Source of the DNA: an uncultured Coxiellaceae bacterium
GTDB lineage: Bacteria > Pseudomonadota > Gammaproteobacteria > Coxiellales > Coxiellaceae
Assembly: GCA_947084935.1 (NCBI GenBank)
Contig: CAMTUH010000010.1
Coordinates: 4,538 to 68,537 of the forward strand
DNA: 64,000 bases
Direction: 5' to 3'
The position numbers and the translations under genes were made by a program. Positions within the stretch are counted from its first letter, which is position 1. The number at the start of each line of letters is the position of its first letter. Of the stretch, positions 1,022 through 60,598 are shown piece after piece. Under the pieces are notes generated by a model. That model saw nothing but the letters and a program-made list of their open reading frames with translations, was not told where the DNA came from and did not search any database.

Positions 1022-1519
1022 ATGATGCACGGAAAGGCATCCCTGAAATACTCTATCCACTGGCTGTTCGAGCAATATAAAAATATTGTTCGACTTTATG
1101 CCCGGAAATACCCCTTTAAAATAATTGATATCGAGCAACACGATGGTGGAGGTGAAACTCAATTTGTCATTAAAATTGAGTATCGAATTTCAACCATAAA
1201 AAAAACTGCCCATGAGTTGGTCGCACACCCGGATTTTTTAGAAGGATTTTCAAGGAGCGATGTCCAAATCATTACTTATCACTTTTTCATCAATAATCAA
1301 AAACCTCAATATGAGTTAATCGGAGAAAAGCGAGCGGTAAACGGCACAGCCCTATTGCTTAAGGATAATAAGTGTTCCGTGACGCACGTCAAAAATGTCT
1401 CTGATTTTAGAGGCATCAAAAAATATATTTCAAAACTGAACCCAAAATCTGCATTTAGAATTGGTTTTTTAATGGGGACAAATTCAAAACGAAAATATCA
1501 TGCTAAAACCTCGCGCTGA
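1022..1519 (+). CDS. hypothetical protein, 165 aa, no recognised domain
   Basis: Only long ORF between rpoS and the next gene. Weak SD. 3' end overlaps the next ORF by 20 nt. No motif recognised. Confidence 0.4.
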   Translation: MMHGKASLKYSIHWLFEQYKNIVRLYARKYPFKIIDIEQHDGGGETQFVIKIEYRISTIKKTAHELVAHPDFLEGFSRSDVQIITYHFFINNQKPQYELIGEKRAVNGTALLLKDNKCSVTHVKNVSDFRGIKKYISKLNPKSAFRIGFLMGTNSKRKYHAKTSR

Positions 1520-2234
1520 ATATATACAATCCAATTATGTGATAGTTTTCGCAATGCTGTATTGTATGGCGCTTGTCATTCCGGTAGTGCTCGCATACCG
1601 ACCAGTGGCATTCGGCTTTTTTTCTGCAATACCTGGCGGCGCTCTTATTTTTCCTTCAACCTATTTATTCGGTGATATTATTAGCGAGGTATACGGCTAT
1701 AAGATAGCGAGGCAAATACTGTGGTGTTCCATTGGCGCGGAAATTTTATTTGCGCTTGGGATAACAGCAGTAATATATTCTCCATTTCCCAAAGGATGGC
1801 AGCAATATCACGAATACGTTGATGTTCTTGGGCATTCTTTACGGTTTGTAATGGCCAGCATCTTAGGGACAACCATAAGCGAATTCGTAAATATCTATAT
1901 TATTAGTAAGTCTAAAATTTATTATAAAGGTAGGCATTTTTGGCTAAGAAGCCTATTTTCAAGTGCGACGGGAGAAATAATTTTAACGATTATCGTTTAC
2001 TCAATCACATTTATGGGTATTTTTTCATTTATGGAAGTTATAAGGCTGATGATAAACGGGTATCTGTACAAGGTTGCTTTTTCAACGATAGGTGTCATTC
2101 CGGTAGTATTAATCACCACTTATCTTAAGAAAAAAGAAAATATAGATGTTTACGATCACAGTACCAATTTTAATCCTTTTATATTCGCATTGGAAAATTC
2201 TCACTTAAAGTCTGCTCCTAAATCGCCTATTTGA
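1500..2234 (+). CDS. yhhQ: queuosine-precursor transporter family membrane protein (YhhQ/COG1738-like)
   Basis: Polytopic membrane protein with the family-typical segment FPSTYLFGDIISEVYGYKIARQILW. About 6 predicted TM helices. Size (244 aa) fits. Confidence 0.65.
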   Translation: MLKPRAEYIQSNYVIVFAMLYCMALVIPVVLAYRPVAFGFFSAIPGGALIFPSTYLFGDIISEVYGYKIARQILWCSIGAEILFALGITAVIYSPFPKGWQQYHEYVDVLGHSLRFVMASILGTTISEFVNIYIISKSKIYYKGRHFWLRSLFSSATGEIILTIIVYSITFMGIFSFMEVIRLMINGYLYKVAFSTIGVIPVVLITTYLKKKENIDVYDHSTNFNPFIFALENSHLKSAPKSPI

Positions 2235-3065
2235 GGAGTCAAGGTTACTTTGATTTGTTGGAAAAAATTTCTGGGCATATATTTCTAATATATTAAACGT
2301 CATAAATACACTACCGTCCTCACCAGCAGGGCTTCGTCTTAAATAGGCCTCGCCAATCGACTCCATATACTCGTCTCTTTTATCTTTTGGCACGCAATTA
2401 ACGTGCGGCAACCAGGATTTTACAAAATTTAGTAAGGTAGCAATGTCGCGAAATTTATATGTAATTGGCTTTGATTGGATGCTGAGTACTTCAAAGCCCG
2501 CTTTAACGAGCAGTTTCTTGTATTGAGTTGGGGTGTAGAAAGTACGGGGATTCACAAAGTCGTTAAAGTACTCAGACCACTGATCGGATGAAACGGACTC
2601 ATCAACGATAGACCACAACGGTTCATGACGCATTCCAAAAGTTAAGATTAATTTTCCAGTGTCTTTAAGAATCGACTGTATTCTCGACAGAGCAAGCAGT
2701 TGCTCTTGTGGACTTAACCAATGTAGCGCATTGGCGGAAAAGACCCAATCCACTCTTTTAGGAAGGGTAAGGTTCTTTGCATCTGCAGTAAAAAACGTAA
2801 TATTTGGATATTGTGCAGCAGGATAGGCTTTTTTCGCAAACTCGATTGCTTTTACAGAAATGTCAAACGCATAAACTTTCCCTACGTATTTGGAAAGATA
2901 AACAGAAATAGCTCCAGTGCCACAACCCATATCAACAAGGATATCATCGGTTTTGAATTGCGCTTGAAATTGATCAATAAGCTCTTGAGCAGTGGCTATT
3001 TGTGGCTGGGAGTGTTCACTATATTCATGTGGGTTATTGCTGCCTCGTTCGGTTCTCATAGTCAC
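2205..3065 (-). CDS. class I SAM-dependent methyltransferase
   Basis: SAM-binding motif I LVDMGCGTGAISVYL followed by the acidic loop VYAFDIS. 286 aa. Start is 4 nt downstream of the stop of the repressor gene, so the two are probably co-transcribed. Confidence 0.75.
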   Translation of the reverse strand: MTMRTERGSNNPHEYSEHSQPQIATAQELIDQFQAQFKTDDILVDMGCGTGAISVYLSKYVGKVYAFDISVKAIEFAKKAYPAAQYPNITFFTADAKNLTLPKRVDWVFSANALHWLSPQEQLLALSRIQSILKDTGKLILTFGMRHEPLWSIVDESVSSDQWSEYFNDFVNPRTFYTPTQYKKLLVKAGFEVLSIQSKPITYKFRDIATLLNFVKSWLPHVNCVPKDKRDEYMESIGEAYLRRSPAGEDGSVFMTFNILEIYAQKFFPTNQSNLDSSNRRFRSRL

Positions 3066-3068
3066 ACC

Positions 3069-3716
3069 TCAGTCGACAAGATTAACAATGGTTTGAACGA
3101 CAACACCAATGATTCTGTCTTTTTCTCCCAGTTGTTGAGATATTTCAGCTTGACCTGGGGTGACAAAAAACCGAATATCATCATCGAAAACAATTTCTTT
3201 TAAATTAACAAATTTTTGACCCTTTAGTGCAACGATAACAAAGTCTCCATTTCCGGGTTCTACTTCGGGATCAACAATAATAATTGATCCCTTTTGAAAT
3301 TGGGGCTCCATGCTGGCTGTATTTATATTTAATGCAAAAGCATGTTTACTTGTAACGTGCTCGGTGAGCACCCGCTTAGCTTCTCTTTTTTTGCTAAAAA
3401 ATTCTTCTGGGTTATAAGCTTCATGCCAATTCAGTGCTGGAACAGAGTTGTCGGTTGCGGTAGCACGGTATTTTCCCAGGTCATCTTCTCTGAGCGGTAT
3501 CTCACCAATTAACTGCCCTACGGGGATAGAAAAAAAATTTGCAATAATACTTAAAGAATCAAGAGTTGGGTTGGGATTCTTTTCTTTTATTAATCTGTTG
3601 ATGACCGATTTGGAAATACCCGTCTTGCGAGAAAGCTCGCGCTCGCTTAATGCCGCTTTGCGCATCAGTAAAGAAAGTATGTTGCCAATTTTGTTTCCCA
3701 ATCCAGTGCCCCCCAA
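3069..3716 (-). CDS. LexA/CI-like repressor (XRE-type HTH plus S24 peptidase domain)
   Basis: N-terminal HTH LSERELSRKTGISKSVINRLIKE. C-terminal S24 signature with the catalytic-Ser context TASMEPQF and a downstream GDFVIVALKGQK segment. Start codon uncertain (TTG at 3716 or 3701). Confidence 0.75.
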   Translation of the reverse strand: MGGTGLGNKIGNILSLLMRKAALSERELSRKTGISKSVINRLIKEKNPNPTLDSLSIIANFFSIPVGQLIGEIPLREDDLGKYRATATDNSVPALNWHEAYNPEEFFSKKREAKRVLTEHVTSKHAFALNINTASMEPQFQKGSIIIVDPEVEPGNGDFVIVALKGQKFVNLKEIVFDDDIRFFVTPGQAEISQQLGEKDRIIGVVVQTIVNLVD

Positions 3717-3723
3717 CGCTGTC

Positions 3724-3779
3724 GGACTTTAAAAAAACCAATTATAGGTATTGACTCTTTTAAAGTCCATCGGTACCAT
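3724..3779 (+). promoter_or_regulatory. sigma-70-like promoter (TTGACT-17-TACCAT) overlapped by an 11-bp perfect inverted repeat; candidate operator
   Basis: GGACTTTAAAA at 3724..3734 and TTTTAAAGTCC at 3758..3768. -35 TTGACT at 3751..3756 and -10 TACCAT at 3774..3779. Lies in the divergent region between the repressor gene and the 110-aa ORF. Confidence 0.4.
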
Positions 3780-3826
3780 TGTTTACAGCCTCTTAGCTTA
3801 TTGGATTTTATTAAGGAGTAACACAA

Positions 3827-4159
3827 ATGTCTCTATCGATTGGAAATACTGTTTCCCCACCCCCCTTTCTGAATAGTGAAGCACTGCAAACTTCCTTGGA
3901 GCCTGATCCCGTCGAGCCAGATTACTACATTCGCAGTCTCGAGCGGTATGGGATTATCTGCTATAAGCAACTTACTGATCCAGCCCAGTGTTTTGTCTTT
4001 GCTTGGCAAATTGCAGAAAATCCTCGGTTATTGGCTCGATTTGACGAGCGCGATCGGCACTTTATTGAGTCTTCGGCAGCGTATGAGCGAAAGGACTCCT
4101 GGTACCGGAAGGCAGGGCTGCAATTACGGCAGCGGGGTTTTGAAGCATTCACGGAATGA
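3827..4159 (+). CDS. conserved hypothetical protein, 110 aa; paralog A of the ORF at 20997..21326
   Basis: Good SD (AAGGAG). Roughly two-thirds amino-acid identity by eye to the second copy (PVEPDYY, GIICYKQ, FAWQI, RFDERDRHFI, ERKDSWY, QLRQ.GFE.FTE). Many differences between the copies are synonymous third-position changes, which indicates real coding sequence. Confidence 0.65.
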   Translation: MSLSIGNTVSPPPFLNSEALQTSLEPDPVEPDYYIRSLERYGIICYKQLTDPAQCFVFAWQIAENPRLLARFDERDRHFIESSAAYERKDSWYRKAGLQLRQRGFEAFTE

Positions 4160-4223
4160 AAGTGTATTTACATTTTATGAATAGAATACTATTATTTGTA
4201 TATACGTCTTTTGGGGGTGTACG

Positions 4224-4472
4224 GTGAAACAAGCAATGAATTTTAGACTCAACAGCCGGACGGTTGCGCGTTTGTCGACGCTCTCTAAAGAGCTGCATTT
4301 GTCGAAGACAGACGTTTTGGAAAAAGCCATTGATTTTTATGCCAAAAAGCAAATGCGTTCACAATCGGATTTAATGAAATTCGCCGGAATTCTCAGCGAA
4401 GAAGACGCGAATAAGATGCAAAGTGCAATCCGAGAATCCAGGCATAATAAAGATGAGGACGTGGAATTGTGA
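4224..4472 (+). CDS. ribbon-helix-helix (CopG/VapB-like) antitoxin
   Basis: N-terminal MNFRLNSRTVARLSTLSKELHLSKTDVLEKAIDFY fits an RHH fold. Overlaps the downstream PIN toxin gene by 4 nt. Start may instead be the ATG at 4236. Confidence 0.7.
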   Translation: MKQAMNFRLNSRTVARLSTLSKELHLSKTDVLEKAIDFYAKKQMRSQSDLMKFAGILSEEDANKMQSAIRESRHNKDEDVEL

Positions 4473-4873
4473 AATACGTCTTGGATACGGATATTTTAAT
4501 TTATTTTTTGAAAGGCAAGGAAAGCGTCGTCACTAAAATAACAGAAATTCCTGTGGAGGATTTAAGCACGACGATCGTTAATCACACCGAATTACTGTTT
4601 GGTGCGCTAAACTCCACGCATAAAAAAGAAAACTTGATTAAGGTTACGGGATTATTGGGTAAATTAGAAATTTTACCCTTTTGTGAAAAGTCTTCTTACC
4701 GATTTGCAGAGAAAAAAGCCGAATTAAAGAAATCGGGAAGAATGCTTGCGGATCTTGATCTCATGATCGCAAGCATTTGTCTCCAAACCAATGCACTGTT
4801 GGTTACCAACAACACAAGGCATTTTGACCGAATTGCGGGCTTAACAGTAGAGAATTGGGCGCATGATGAATAA
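4469..4873 (+). CDS. vapC: PIN-domain toxin VapC
   Basis: PIN acidic residues in YVLDTDILIYFL, ..HTELLFG.., DLDLMIASICL and LLVTNNTRHFDRI. 134 aa. GTG start overlaps the antitoxin stop. Confidence 0.85.
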   Translation: MKYVLDTDILIYFLKGKESVVTKITEIPVEDLSTTIVNHTELLFGALNSTHKKENLIKVTGLLGKLEILPFCEKSSYRFAEKKAELKKSGRMLADLDLMIASICLQTNALLVTNNTRHFDRIAGLTVENWAHDE

Positions 4874-4971
4874 ACTAAATGGACGCTTTTAGGACCAGTC
4901 AGGGTCGCCACGATATAATCATTCGCAAAAATGGCCGGAGTGAGGCTAAGGCCAAGAAGACAAGTGATTAA

Positions 4972-5380
4972 GCAACCATTCTTCTGTAAATTAGCTAGAC
5001 GCTGTTTCAGGAGAGAGTCCCGTGAGTGCTCCCGGCACTCCTCAGCTTGCGCCGCTTCGGCATAACGGGGCCGCGAAATTCGACTTCCTGGTCTCAGATT
5101 CGCTCTCTGGGACATCCCTGTCCCAGAGACCCCGTTATGCCCGCGCGGCTCAGCTTGCGGGTGCTGGAGGAGCCCCCACGGGACTCTCTCCTGAAACAGC
5201 ATCAGCGGGATTTGCTGAATGGGCTGGAGGGGAGGTGTTATGAAACGCAAATAAAGCGCAGTCGGGCGGAGCCCGACGAGCCATTGCGTTTCATAACACC
5301 TCCCCTCCAAGCCCCTTGATGTCTGCTCGCGAAAAATACCTCACCAACAGCTTCAGCGGAATTTACAGAAGAATGGTTGC
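4972..5380. mobile_element. MITE-like nested palindromic element, about 409 bp, GC-rich
   Basis: Perfect 21-bp terminal inverted repeat GCAACCATTCTTCTGTAAATT (4972..4992 / 5360..5380). Internal perfect 24-bp IR (5001..5024 / 5177..5200) and 26-bp IR (5225..5250 / 5284..5309), plus smaller hairpins (5104..5127, 5261..5277). No coding capacity that I trust. Confidence 0.55.
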
Positions 5381-5457
5381 GTAATCATGTAAAACACATT
5401 GTGACGCACGCTGAATACAATAAGCTTTGTAAAAAGTATATGAGAGAAGGAGAGTAG
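5362..5457 (+). pseudogene. higB: 3' relic of a HigB-family toxin gene
   Basis: Translates to ..WLRNHVKHIVTHAEYNKLCKKYMREGE*. This resembles the HigB C-terminus (V.I..I.THAEYD). Its stop is 1 nt before the higA ATG. The frame hits a stop upstream at 5317 and there is no room for the N-terminal half. Confidence 0.45.
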
Positions 5458-5458
5458 T

Positions 5459-5872
5459 ATGGGTTTTGCATTGATAAAAAGAAAAGCGCATTCTTTATTT
5501 GAAGAAGCTCGTTTCATTGGTCATATCAATAATAACGAAGAGTACGAAAAAGCACTTACTTTAATGGATGAGCTCATCGAAGACTATGACTATAATCGCG
5601 TGTTAATTGAGATTCTTTCTGCCAGTATCGAGCGTTGGGAAAATGAGTCTAAAGAATTTAAAGACTTTAATGCGCGCATCGAATCGGTAGATTCAGGACG
5701 AGCCCTGTTAGAAATAATCATGGAGCAATATGAATTGGGCGTGGCTGACTTTCCTGAAGTGGGTTCTAAATCGTTGGTTTCAAAAATTTTAAATAATAAA
5801 CGTCGATTGACCTTAGGTCATATCCAAGCCCTGAGTAAACGATTTGGGATCGACCCCGGATTGTTTCTTTGA
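5459..5872 (+). CDS. higA: HigA-family HTH antitoxin / transcriptional regulator
   Basis: Collinear by eye with E. coli HigA: NEEYEKALTLMDELI, IERWE..SKEFKDFNA, IMEQYELGVADFPEVGSKSLVSKILNNKRRLTLGHIQALSKRFGIDPGLF. Good SD (GGAG). Confidence 0.8.
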   Translation: MGFALIKRKAHSLFEEARFIGHINNNEEYEKALTLMDELIEDYDYNRVLIEILSASIERWENESKEFKDFNARIESVDSGRALLEIIMEQYELGVADFPEVGSKSLVSKILNNKRRLTLGHIQALSKRFGIDPGLFL

Positions 5873-8293
5873 TTTTTCTGGAAGGTGGCCGTTGATGAGG
5901 TTTTTATTATTTGAGGTATCGGTCTTCGACAAGGTTAACCACGTTTTTAGAATAGAATCGGGGCTCAGAGACATGCTGTTGATGCCTTGTTCCAGGAGCC
6001 ATTGAGCAAAATCGATGTGATCCGATGGCCCCTGTCCGCAAATACCCACGTATTTATTCAGTCGCTTGCATGTTTGAATGGTTTGACTCAACAATGCTTT
6101 AACGGCGCTGTTCCGCTCATCGAATAAATGTGCAATTAATTCGGAATCGCGGTCGAGGCCCAGCGCTAATTGAGTCAGATCATTTGAACCAATGGAGAAC
6201 CCATCAAAATATTCCAGAAATTCTTCCGCTAAAATAACGTTGGAAGGGATTTCGCACATCATATAGAATTTCAGGCCATTTCCGCGCTTGAGCCCATGTT
6301 TTTCAGTCAGGGTGAGCAATTGCGTTGCCTCATTGACGGTACGAACAAACGGAAACATAATGTGTGTATTAATCAGTCCTTTTTCTTCACGAACGCGTCT
6401 CACCGCTTCACACTCGAGCGTGAAGCAGTCCCGAAAATTTCCCGAAGTATAACGCGAAGCTCCGCGATAACCGAGCATGGGATTTTCTTCGTGTGCTTCG
6501 TAAATAGCGCCGCCAATTAAATTCGCGTACTCATTCGATTTAAAATCGGAAAATCGTACAATGATGGGCTTGGGATAAAATGCAGCGGCAATGGTCGCAA
6601 TGCCTTCGGCCAGTTTTTCAATGTAAAATTCAATCGGATTTTTGTAGGCCGAAATTATTTTAGCGATTTTATTTTTTAGCGGCGGGGGCAATTTTTTATA
6701 ATCCAAAAGTGCGCGGGGGTGTATGCCGATCATGTTGTTAATAATAAATTCCAATCGCGCGAGTCCAACACCACCGTTGGGAATAAATTGGTAGACAAAT
6801 GCTTGTTCGGGGTTGGCGAGATTCATGCACAATTCGACGGGTAACGCGGGCAGTTGATCAATGGATGTTTTATCGATGCGGTATTTGGCATTACCTTTAT
6901 AAACGTAACCGGTTTCGCCTTCCGCACAGGAAACCGTAATTTTTTGGCCGTCTTTAATTACTCGGGTTGCATTACTGCAACCTACGACCGCAGGAATTCC
7001 CATTTCGCGCGCAATAATTGCCGCATGGCACGTGCGTCCACCCCGATTGGTGATGATGGCTGCGGCGCGTTTCATGATCGGCTCCCAATCGGGGTCCGTC
7101 ATGTCGGTTACTAAAATTTCGCCGGGCTTCAGTCGATCTTTTTGTTTCGGACTTTTAATTAAACGAGCAACGCCGTGCGTGATTTTTTGTCCGATGCTGC
7201 GTCCTTGGGTGAGGATGTGCCCTTTTTCTTCTAAACAATAGTGTTCGAGAACACGATGAGTTTCATTCGATTGTACGGTTTCCGGTCGTGCTTGCAGAAT
7301 ATAAATTTCATTGTCAATGCCGTCTTTCGCCCACTCGATATCCATCGGCTTTCCATAATGGGATTCGATTAACAGCGCTTGATTCGCCAGGACTAAAATG
7401 TCGTCGTCGCTGATACAAAAGCGTTGTTGATCCGCGATGGGAACGGATTGATTGACGGTAGCAGTTTTGTTTTTTTTCGATTTTTTTGCGTAGACAGTTT
7501 TTATCGATTTCGATCCCAGCTTTCGGCTGATGATGGATTTTTTTTCTTCGCGCAACGTGGGTTTGTGAACATAAAATTCATCGGGATTATTCAGACCCTG
7601 AACAATAGTTTCGCCAAGACCGTATGCGGCAGTAATAAAAATCACTTGATCAAATCCCGATTCCGTGTCGAGGGTAAACATCACGCCACTGGCGGCTAAA
7701 TCACTGCGCACCATTTTTTGTATGCCAGCGGAAATAGCCACTTGTGTGTGGTCGAATCCGTTGTGAATGCGGTATGAAATGGCACGTTCGGTAAACAGCG
7801 AAGAGAAAACTTTTTTGATTGCGGTGAGAAGGTCTTTTTCACCGCGGATATTTAAATACGTTTCTTGTTGTCCGGCGAATGAGGCCTGCGGCAAATCTTC
7901 CGCCGTGGCCGATGAGCGAACGGCAACCGACTGGGACGGTTTTAACTGAAGTTGCCGATATGCTCTTTTGATTTCTGAAACGAGTTCGTCTGGCAGCTCG
8001 GCGTTATCAATCCAGCGACGAATGTCCACGCTGGCTTTTTTCAGCTGGGTCATATTATTGATGTCTAACTGGAATAATGCTTTAGAGATTTTTTTATCTA
8101 GGTTATTTTTTTCTAGGAAGTCATAATAAGCGAAGGCGGTGGTAGCGAATCCCCCGGGAACCTTGATCCCCAGAGGGGAGAGCCTGTTGATCATCTCTCC
8201 GAGGGAGGCGTTTTTACCGCCGACGTCGGGGAGGTGCTCTAGGGTAACCTCGCGAAGGTCCAGTATATAAGTCATGTTTTGATCCATTTTCAT
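5813..8293 (-). CDS. ppsA: phosphoenolpyruvate synthase
   Basis: 826 aa. N-terminal GGKNASLGEM, the phosphohistidine swivel segment TNRGGRTCHAAIIAREMGIPAVVG, and the C-terminal PEP-utilising domain GFSIGSNDLTQL. C-terminus is about 35 aa longer than the usual end after ..TWL.L.. Confidence 0.95.
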   Translation of the reverse strand: MKMDQNMTYILDLREVTLEHLPDVGGKNASLGEMINRLSPLGIKVPGGFATTAFAYYDFLEKNNLDKKISKALFQLDINNMTQLKKASVDIRRWIDNAELPDELVSEIKRAYRQLQLKPSQSVAVRSSATAEDLPQASFAGQQETYLNIRGEKDLLTAIKKVFSSLFTERAISYRIHNGFDHTQVAISAGIQKMVRSDLAASGVMFTLDTESGFDQVIFITAAYGLGETIVQGLNNPDEFYVHKPTLREEKKSIISRKLGSKSIKTVYAKKSKKNKTATVNQSVPIADQQRFCISDDDILVLANQALLIESHYGKPMDIEWAKDGIDNEIYILQARPETVQSNETHRVLEHYCLEEKGHILTQGRSIGQKITHGVARLIKSPKQKDRLKPGEILVTDMTDPDWEPIMKRAAAIITNRGGRTCHAAIIAREMGIPAVVGCSNATRVIKDGQKITVSCAEGETGYVYKGNAKYRIDKTSIDQLPALPVELCMNLANPEQAFVYQFIPNGGVGLARLEFIINNMIGIHPRALLDYKKLPPPLKNKIAKIISAYKNPIEFYIEKLAEGIATIAAAFYPKPIIVRFSDFKSNEYANLIGGAIYEAHEENPMLGYRGASRYTSGNFRDCFTLECEAVRRVREEKGLINTHIMFPFVRTVNEATQLLTLTEKHGLKRGNGLKFYMMCEIPSNVILAEEFLEYFDGFSIGSNDLTQLALGLDRDSELIAHLFDERNSAVKALLSQTIQTCKRLNKYVGICGQGPSDHIDFAQWLLEQGINSMSLSPDSILKTWLTLSKTDTSNNKNLINGHLPEKSKKQSGVDPKSFTQGLDMT

Positions 8294-8365
8294 TGAACAA
8301 TAAAACTATAGCAGAGGATTGTTCAAAGATTGATATGATACTTTGGGGTGTTATGACTCAGGCAC

Positions 8366-8399
8366 GTAGCCTTGATGGAGCGCTAGCGAAATCAAGGAA
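8366..8399 (+). repeat. REP-like palindromic unit, copy A (GTAGCCTTGATGGAGC..GCGAAATCAAGGAA)
   Basis: Same termini as the inverted copy at 21362..21416. Forms a CCTTGAT/ATCAAGG hairpin. Embedded in a GC-rich structured intergenic segment (about 8355..8470) upstream of ppsA. Confidence 0.6.
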
Positions 8400-59644: not shown

Positions 59645-60394
59645 ATGAGCATACTCAACGAAAAACAAAAGGCGTTATGCAACAAAGCGCCCGCTGATTA
59701 TTCCGATTTGAAGGCATTATTTTTAAATTGTACGCTGAAACGGTCGCCCGAGCTTTCGCATACGGAAGGCTTGATACGCATTTCAAAAGCGATTATGGAA
59801 AAAAATCACGTTGCAGTAGAAGTGATTCGCCCGGTGGATTACGCTATTGCTTATGGTGTTTATGGGGATATGCGCGAGCACGGTTGGGACCATGACGACT
59901 GGCCTTCGATTTACGAAAAGGTACAAAAAGCGGATATTTTGGTCATCACGACACCCATTTGGCTCGGTGATAAATCATCCGTTTGTACCAAGACGATCGA
60001 GCGTTTATACGGAAATTCGGGTGATCTTAATGAGCATGGTCAGTATGCTTATTATGGAAAAGTGGGTGGCTGTTTAATTACCGGCAATGAAGACGGCGCC
60101 AAGCATTGCGCCATGAATATCCTCTATTCTTTGCAGCACCTTGGTTACGTGATCCCTCCACAAGCCGATGCGGCTTGGCTGGGTGGAGTAGGGCCCGGGC
60201 CTTCTTATCTGGATCCTGATTCGGGTGGTCCCGAAAATGATTTCACCAATCGCAATACGACGTTCATGACGTGGAACCTCTTACATCTGGCCAGAATACT
60301 GAAGGACGTCGGTGGAATCCCGGCGCACGGTAATCAGCGTTCGGAGTGGGACGCCGGTTGCCGATTTGATTACCCGAATCCCGATTACCGTTAA
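59645..60394 (+). CDS. flavodoxin-like NAD(P)H-dependent FMN reductase family protein
   Basis: Flavodoxin-like fold pattern (LFLNCTLKRSPELSHT ... ADILVITTPIWLGDKSS ... GNEDGAKH). 249 aa. Confidence 0.7.
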   Translation: MSILNEKQKALCNKAPADYSDLKALFLNCTLKRSPELSHTEGLIRISKAIMEKNHVAVEVIRPVDYAIAYGVYGDMREHGWDHDDWPSIYEKVQKADILVITTPIWLGDKSSVCTKTIERLYGNSGDLNEHGQYAYYGKVGGCLITGNEDGAKHCAMNILYSLQHLGYVIPPQADAAWLGGVGPGPSYLDPDSGGPENDFTNRNTTFMTWNLLHLARILKDVGGIPAHGNQRSEWDAGCRFDYPNPDYR

Positions 60395-60598
60395 TAAAAT
60401 TTACAGAAGAATTGTTGCTTAATCCACAATGAAGCAACCTGATTTTTCGGGAAAATATTTTGTGTATTCTATTGCAGCCAATGAGCAAGTAGAAATCAAT
60501 AATAAGAATAGGGCAGATGATATTTTTTTCATTTTTTTTTGCGCACGGTTTTTATAGCATCCTTAACATCTTGTTTTGTAAGACCAGTTCGCCTGGAT

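Follow-up and report, generated by a model that had tools for sequence, protein, structure and literature searches.

A nested palindrome in an uncultured Coxiellaceae bacterium is probably a composite of three independent repeat families

A 423-nt unit of nested palindromes (positions 4965–5387) in the genome of an uncultured Coxiellaceae bacterium is probably non-coding DNA in which three independent selfish repeats are combined; we term them shell A, family B and family C. Positions refer to the window, that is, the whole 64,000-nt stretch of DNA that was analysed, which belongs to contig C10 of a 14-contig MAG (1.74 Mb, 94.5% complete; G000). When the unit was BLASTed against its own genome, one full copy was recovered together with one copy of positions 5202–5387 on contig C2 (97% identical), and many separate loci matched positions 5028–5170 (family B) and 5234–5300 (family C). 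Because B and C match many separate loci and the full unit matches once, we describe it as a three-part composite and not as one MITE. An earlier, sequence-only reading had proposed a MITE-like element of about 410 bp. What stands of that proposal is the non-coding, nested repeat DNA bounded by transposon-type inverted repeats; the single family does not, given one full and one deleted copy and inner palindromes that belong to two separate families, each distributed independently and at a copy number of its own. As a class the unit is ordinary, its members being known kinds of repeat, and family C alone is undescribed and absent from Rfam. The features discussed are collected in Table 1.

Table 1. 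Coordinates of the repeat unit, its parts and related loci. Plain numbers are window positions; C1 to C12 are contigs and L numbers are loci.
Feature	Position	Strand	Remarks
Left terminal inverted repeat, shell A (IS256-family type)	4965..4992	+	28 nt, one mismatch to right arm
Family B long-hairpin repeat, TwoAYGGAY-like	4998..5203	.	outer stem 5001-5024/5177-5200; direct repeat 5041-5051, 5149-5159
Two adjacent hairpins with GGA-containing loops, B core	5056..5134	-	RF01731, 41.4 bits vs gathering score 43
Small hairpin TCAGC-GGGATTT-GCTGA	5202..5222	+	compared by eye with 5352-5375
Family C hairpin repeat	5225..5309	+	invariant tip 5247-5287, GGGC-GGA-GCCC apical hairpin
Linker between C and right inverted repeat	5310..5359	.	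shared with the contig C2 paralogue alone
Right terminal inverted repeat, shell A	5360..5387	-	same as right end of C2 paralogue, C2:80892-80919
higB toxin relic, C-terminal	5383..5457	+	abuts right end of unit; followed by intact higA 5459-5872
Solo shell inverted repeat	60398..60425	-	26/28 nt identical; no partner arm nearby
Repeat D, intact	C1:211436-211550, C11:55761-55874		
Repeat D at contig ends	C2, C3, C4, C6, C9, C10, C11, C12		
Family F, examples	C7:985-1143; C10:3404-3520		C10 example ~1 kb upstream of window start
Family E, examples	C4:307111-307260, C1:39431-39581		outer palindrome layers in L044, L119, L102, L051
GTAG-type REP-like hairpin	C2:63400, C6:87190, C6:135940, C11:66190		flanks of C copies
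C-type loci of JANQFH01	L042, L057, L067, L072, L073, L088, L094, L108, L114, L116		

The architecture of the unit was recovered much as it had been reported. The perfect 21-nt terminal repeat (4972–4992/5360–5380) is present and proved to be longer, reaching 28 nt with one mismatch (4965–4992/5360–5387; 27/28 complementary). Positions 5001–5024 pair with 5177–5200 as stated, this 24-bp left stem being part of a 35-nt arm pair that is 91% complementary, and the right stem is perfect over 26 nt (5225–5250 with 5284–5309). The small hairpins described within the stems (5104–5114/5119–5129, 5048–5070/5130–5152 and the tip GTCGGGC-GGA-GCCCGAC) were likewise found, as was the 11-nt direct repeat CTCAGCTTGCG at 5041 and 5149. 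The GC content, which had been called elevated, measures 0.60–0.64 within the unit versus 0.35–0.45 in the flanks. Folded as a single strand, 4965–5387 reaches –158.5 kcal/mol compared with –65.6 ± 4.5 kcal/mol for shuffled sequences (z = –20.7). The unit is bordered by a vapBC pair (4224–4873) on one side and an orphan higA (5459–5872) on the other, and it lies upstream of convergent ppsA.

Open reading frames called within the unit had been taken for by-products of its symmetry, a view with which our data agree, as neither frame is kept in any other copy. Pfam gave no match to either ORF (97 and 204 aa), and the other copies match them in fragments only, with stops and frame changes. Copies of family B moreover vary by single-base indels. 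With no Pfam match, frames that are not kept and single-base indels among the B copies, protein coding was rejected. For annotation this means that ORF calls in such repeat regions are to be discarded.

The 28-nt terminal repeat of shell A occurs five times in the genome at up to six mismatches: at both ends of the unit, at the right ends of the C2 copy and of a 155-bp element on contig C7, and as the solo repeat at 60398–60425. The solo repeat lies three bases past the stop codon of an ORF at 59645–60394. Scanning metagenome contigs with the full inverted repeat yielded no match; a scan with its inner 20 nt yielded 24 loci. At L158, L161, L151 and L147, a repeat motif of 20–27 nt lies just beyond a Transposase_mut gene (PF00872; E = 1e-104 to 1e-108), 40–600 nt past its stop codon, and a TTCTGTAAATTC box is found at both ends of the metagenome Transposase_mut elements. 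Because the motif bounds Transposase_mut elements at these four loci, we assign the ends of shell A to the IS256 family. Judged from these ends, shell A is a putative miniature IS256-family derivative, or MITE shell. A search of its own genome (94.5% complete) for Transposase_mut (PF00872) returned no match; since the assembly holds no such gene, the shell is probably stranded, and it would move only with a Mutator-type (Transposase_mut) transposase supplied in trans.

The composite duplicated once as a unit to contig C2 and then underwent a 224-bp internal deletion there. Of the left repeat, the C2 paralogue has kept the outermost 13 nt, and window positions 4978–5201 have no counterpart in it. 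The sequence CACGACT stands at either side of the paralogue, within a plausible 8-bp duplication in which seven of eight positions match. Because the paralogue carries both a remnant of the left repeat and a flanking duplication, the composite must have moved at least once as a unit. No target duplication was found at the window copy or at the C7 copy. Over 187 nt, window and paralogue differ at six positions, three of which are adjacent (5290–5292; TTC versus GGA). This change makes the stem in the window perfect, removing an internal mismatch that is typical of its subfamily. Quasi-palindrome template switching, a mechanism reportedly worked out by Ripley and by Lovett, gives rise to clustered changes of this perfecting kind, and this single instance points to it. 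For an empty-site comparison, the sole genome of the same genus (G001) is 73% identical and fragmented, hence too distant, and searches for identical proteins led back to the same strain alone.

The small hairpin at 5202–5222 may derive from the right repeat, as a degenerate copy of its inner portion. A right-repeat remnant (...GAATTTACAGAA) also follows directly after the B copies at C1:305402 and C6:128878, as it does at window 5202–5222. This shared remnant suggests that an older unit may have existed, consisting of left repeat, B and right repeat. In their own genome, the ends of shell A usually enclose family F, a GC-rich core of ~100 nt present in 13–15 copies that is bracketed by decayed IS256-type repeats like those of the shell.

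Like MITEs in general, the unit possesses terminal inverted repeats, measures 423 bp and carries neither a transposase nor a conserved ORF. However, the composite is not multi-copy, and its repeat ends are multi-copy only around family F. The likeness to MITEs of the IS256 family is more specific: the 27–28-nt ends share 20–24 nt with the ends of Transposase_mut elements, and the C2 copy has its flanking repeat of 8 bp with a 7/8 match. IS256 target duplications typically measure 8–9 bp (ISfinder). The unit differs in that its interior holds two unrelated hairpin repeats in place of an internally deleted IS; its own genome is without the parent IS, and the window copy is without a target duplication.

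The unit is linked to the decay of a higBA toxin–antitoxin pair. The higB relic at its right border has a weak Pfam HigB_toxin match (profile positions 60–73 of 74, E = 0.0085, below the cut-off), and the HigA encoded at 5459–5872 has an HTH_3 match. Most of higB has been lost at the window site. The unit appears to have inserted in higB, with an adjacent deletion occurring afterwards. Only the last ~14 codons of the higB-like toxin precede the orphan higA, and the point of truncation coincides exactly with the right end of the shell.

Family B comprises ~10 copies in the genome, of which eight are full and bear the signature CTCRGCTTGCG...GCTCASCYTGCG, with further partial ones; the signature was found in one copy each in two other genera. 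The repeat is ~200 nt long. Its 143-nt core is 75–87% identical among copies, and its outer stems of 25–30 bp are highly divergent with complementarity kept. Across seven copies, 95.6% of cells are paired versus 35–49% in slid controls, a level that none of 500 shuffles reached, and 29 of 73 pairs show a change on both sides.

The core of B is reminiscent of the TwoAYGGAY RNA motif (Rfam RF01731; Weinberg et al. 2010, PMC2864571). RF01731 matches occur at nine loci of the genome with 24–41 bits, all below the gathering score of 43, and no match of at least 43 bits was found among the Coxiellaceae genomes. Both B and the motif have two adjacent GGA-loop hairpins inside a long stem that contains internal loops, with AG and CGG as joining bases; in five copies of B the model aligns over its full length, and both are multi-copy. 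In the cmscan alignments of three copies, the GGA-type loops and joining bases of B align to RF01731. There are nonetheless differences, as the loops of B read AGGGAU or CUGGAA in place of AYGGAY, and B has an additional hypervariable outer stem of 25–30 bp. The Rfam matches fall on the same relative strand in the five copies worked out, opposite to the plus strand of the window. The wobble pairs of B favour the strand opposite to the Rfam strand.

Family C is present at ~30 loci in the genome, with a common 41-nt tip and two stem subfamilies. A covariance model built from 16 copies of this genome has 21 matches there, the copies split by repeat D being additional. Among species-representative genomes, the tip pattern was found at 95 loci, carried by water or soil Gammaproteobacteria or Coxiellaceae MAGs, by one Legionella MAG and by one MAG titled Oligoflexia. 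Applied to the tip-pattern loci of other genomes, the model recognised 93 hairpins, mostly full-length. Model matches occur in eight of 64 Coxiellaceae genomes and in none within the genus Coxiella. About a dozen C-type hairpins are found in JANQFH01 (titled Oligoflexia bacterium), a MAG that is assigned to another phylum than the other carriers.

The outer stem of C covaries strongly. Within its own genome, two-sided changes affect 20 of 26 pairs; across genomes this rises to 25 of 26, with all four Watson–Crick types at nearly every position and 94.9% of cells paired versus ~37% in slid controls. The non-Watson–Crick cells across genomes comprise 61 G–T versus 11 A–C, and when related copies are collapsed the bias persists with 48 G–T versus 11 A–C events (p = 1e-6). 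This bias points to possible pairing on the strand that bears the GGA loop. Within its own genome the bias is gone (3 G–T versus 6 A–C). In some MAGs the palindrome remains perfect for at least 60 nt past the C model, running through other repeat modules. No recurrent gene was found beside C copies in 80 loci, and searches for Y1_Tnp (PF01797) and IS110-family transposases in its own genome (94.5% complete) gave no match. One copy (C2:63423-63495; L018) is chimeric, its left and right arms deriving from different stem subfamilies and meeting at the invariant tip. This chimera suggests that recombination may take place between C copies at the tip.

Some C hairpins are interrupted by a further repeat, D, an insert of ~103–115 nt that sits at the foot of the apical hairpin, on its 5′ side. 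It has 11 copies of 95–100% identity, eight of which are located at contig ends. D is probably the youngest repeat of the genome and the chief cause of its assembly breaks, so that for assembly it would account for most of the contig breaks. An insertion of IS1111 type in C tips was considered and ruled out, as the insert is the ~110-nt repeat D and the genome has no IS110 or Y1 transposase.

Elements of comparable design are known from Coxiella burnetii, in which QMITE1 has terminal inverted repeats of ~21–28 nt and a size of 300–400 bp, and the small QMITE2 is a REP-like hairpin that receives insertions, its GTAG REP being the target of IS1111 (Wachter et al. 2018, PMC5896051). The unit shares with QMITE1 the length of its terminal repeats, the 300–400-bp size class and the bacterial family. 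Family C resembles QMITE2 as a REP-like hairpin hosting insertions, and GC-rich palindromes with spurious ORFs are common to our repeats and both QMITEs. Unlike QMITE2, C is without a GTAG REP, the genome is without an IS1111/IS110 transposase, and the C-tip insert is the ~110-nt repeat D. The 2.0-Mb genome G044 of the genus Coxiella (probably C. burnetii), which was compared by pattern counts only and stood outside BLAST and model scoring, gave no pattern match for the A repeat, the B signature or the C tip. The resemblance to Coxiella elements that had been proposed thus extends to an architecture like that of QMITE1 and QMITE2, but not to sequence kinship, with zero A, B or C pattern matches in G044.

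When C is compared with the REP/REPIN-RAYT system, both are short intergenic hairpins in tens of copies with pairing kept across copies, and a constraint on a single strand is suggested for C as well. However, C is built the other way round from a REP, with an invariant tip on a free stem. In addition, C is without the GTAG tetranucleotide and its genome is without a Y1_Tnp gene.

Three other explanations of the unit were weighed. It could have arisen during assembly, as a chimera of repeats joined artificially within a metagenome bin. This is a 14-contig MAG with eight contig ends within repeat D, and the Logan contigs of ERR3478686, an independent assembly, are interrupted within the repeat at 5251–5357, and only there; the sequence of this junction comes from the MAG assembly and the C2 paralogue only. 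Yet the Logan contigs give both sides of the unit at 100% identity: window 1469–5250 takes in vapC, the left repeat, family B and the left half of C, and window 5358–8394 takes in the right repeat and higA. As the join of C, linker and right end also recurs at C2 with other flanks, we give this explanation next to no weight. A single MITE family of ~410 bp with integral palindromes would account for the transposon-type 28-nt repeats that enclose the whole unit and for the C2 locus, where the C–linker–right-end part recurs at 97% with a plausible target duplication. It is nevertheless improbable: the full unit has just one copy, B and C each recur on their own (about 10 and 30 times) and are found in other genera without the shell, and the same inverted repeats normally hold a different core, family F.

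The strongest of these alternatives takes B and C for genes of structured small RNAs, B of the TwoAYGGAY class and C of a new GGA-tip class, with the repeats reflecting family expansion and the shell being incidental. Both families covary strongly, the B copies have RF01731 matches with GGA loops on a consistent strand, and G–T wobbles outnumber A–C mismatches in C stems across genomes. C. burnetii MITEs are moreover known sources of sRNAs (PMC5896051). The covariation of C and its strand-specific wobble would suit a functional RNA, too. Several observations weigh on the other side, and we regard RNA genes as unlikely. No sigma-70-like promoter was found within or adjoining the unit, and copies lie in every orientation relative to adjacent genes. 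The C stems are nearly all Watson–Crick with very few one-sided changes, the clustered 3-nt perfecting change indicates a process at the DNA level, and in some genomes the palindromes are perfect for at least 60 nt past the model. For B, the strand matched by Rfam is not the one that is rich in wobbles.

We thus favour the composite of three selfish repeats. Beyond what was observed, namely how the repeats sort into families, how many copies they have, how they covary and that the shell has IS256-type ends, a course of events can be proposed. An IS256-derived shell A would enclose one B copy with one C copy alongside. B and C may spread as gene-less hairpin DNA via a single-stranded intermediate and by means of some enzyme, and a tendency to settle within or next to other palindromes would lead to nesting. 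The complementarity of the B and C arms might owe part of its upkeep to template switching between arms, a process at the DNA level, and part to selection acting on one of the strands. It is conceivable, though the odds are clearly against it, that mobile hairpin DNA includes a distinct class to which C and its insert D belong. Members of this class would be recognised by their invariant asymmetric tip, insert preferentially at the tips or centres of other palindromes, restore or extend their arms by mirror copying, use a strand-specific single-stranded intermediate and no known transposase family, and be common to bacteria of the Coxiellaceae/Legionellales type and the Oligoflexia MAG.

The composite reading resolves a striking nested palindrome into known kinds of selfish DNA and provides its outer repeats with a concrete parent, the IS256 family. 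Family C, with its invariant tip of 31–41 nt and essentially free stem, is multi-copy in several uncultured lineages of intracellular type. Its wobble bias and nested growth make it a tractable case for how hairpin repeats spread and how their arms are kept matched.

Two further repeats accompany family C. Family E, with ~40 BLAST matches, consists of ~150-nt palindromes that contain a CGTCATTGCGAGG motif. At two loci it takes the place of the left half of the C hairpin, and in another MAG it forms perfect outer layers surrounding C hairpins. Separately, a GTAG-type REP-like hairpin (CCTTGAT...ATCAAGGCTAC) is often located immediately upstream of C hairpins.
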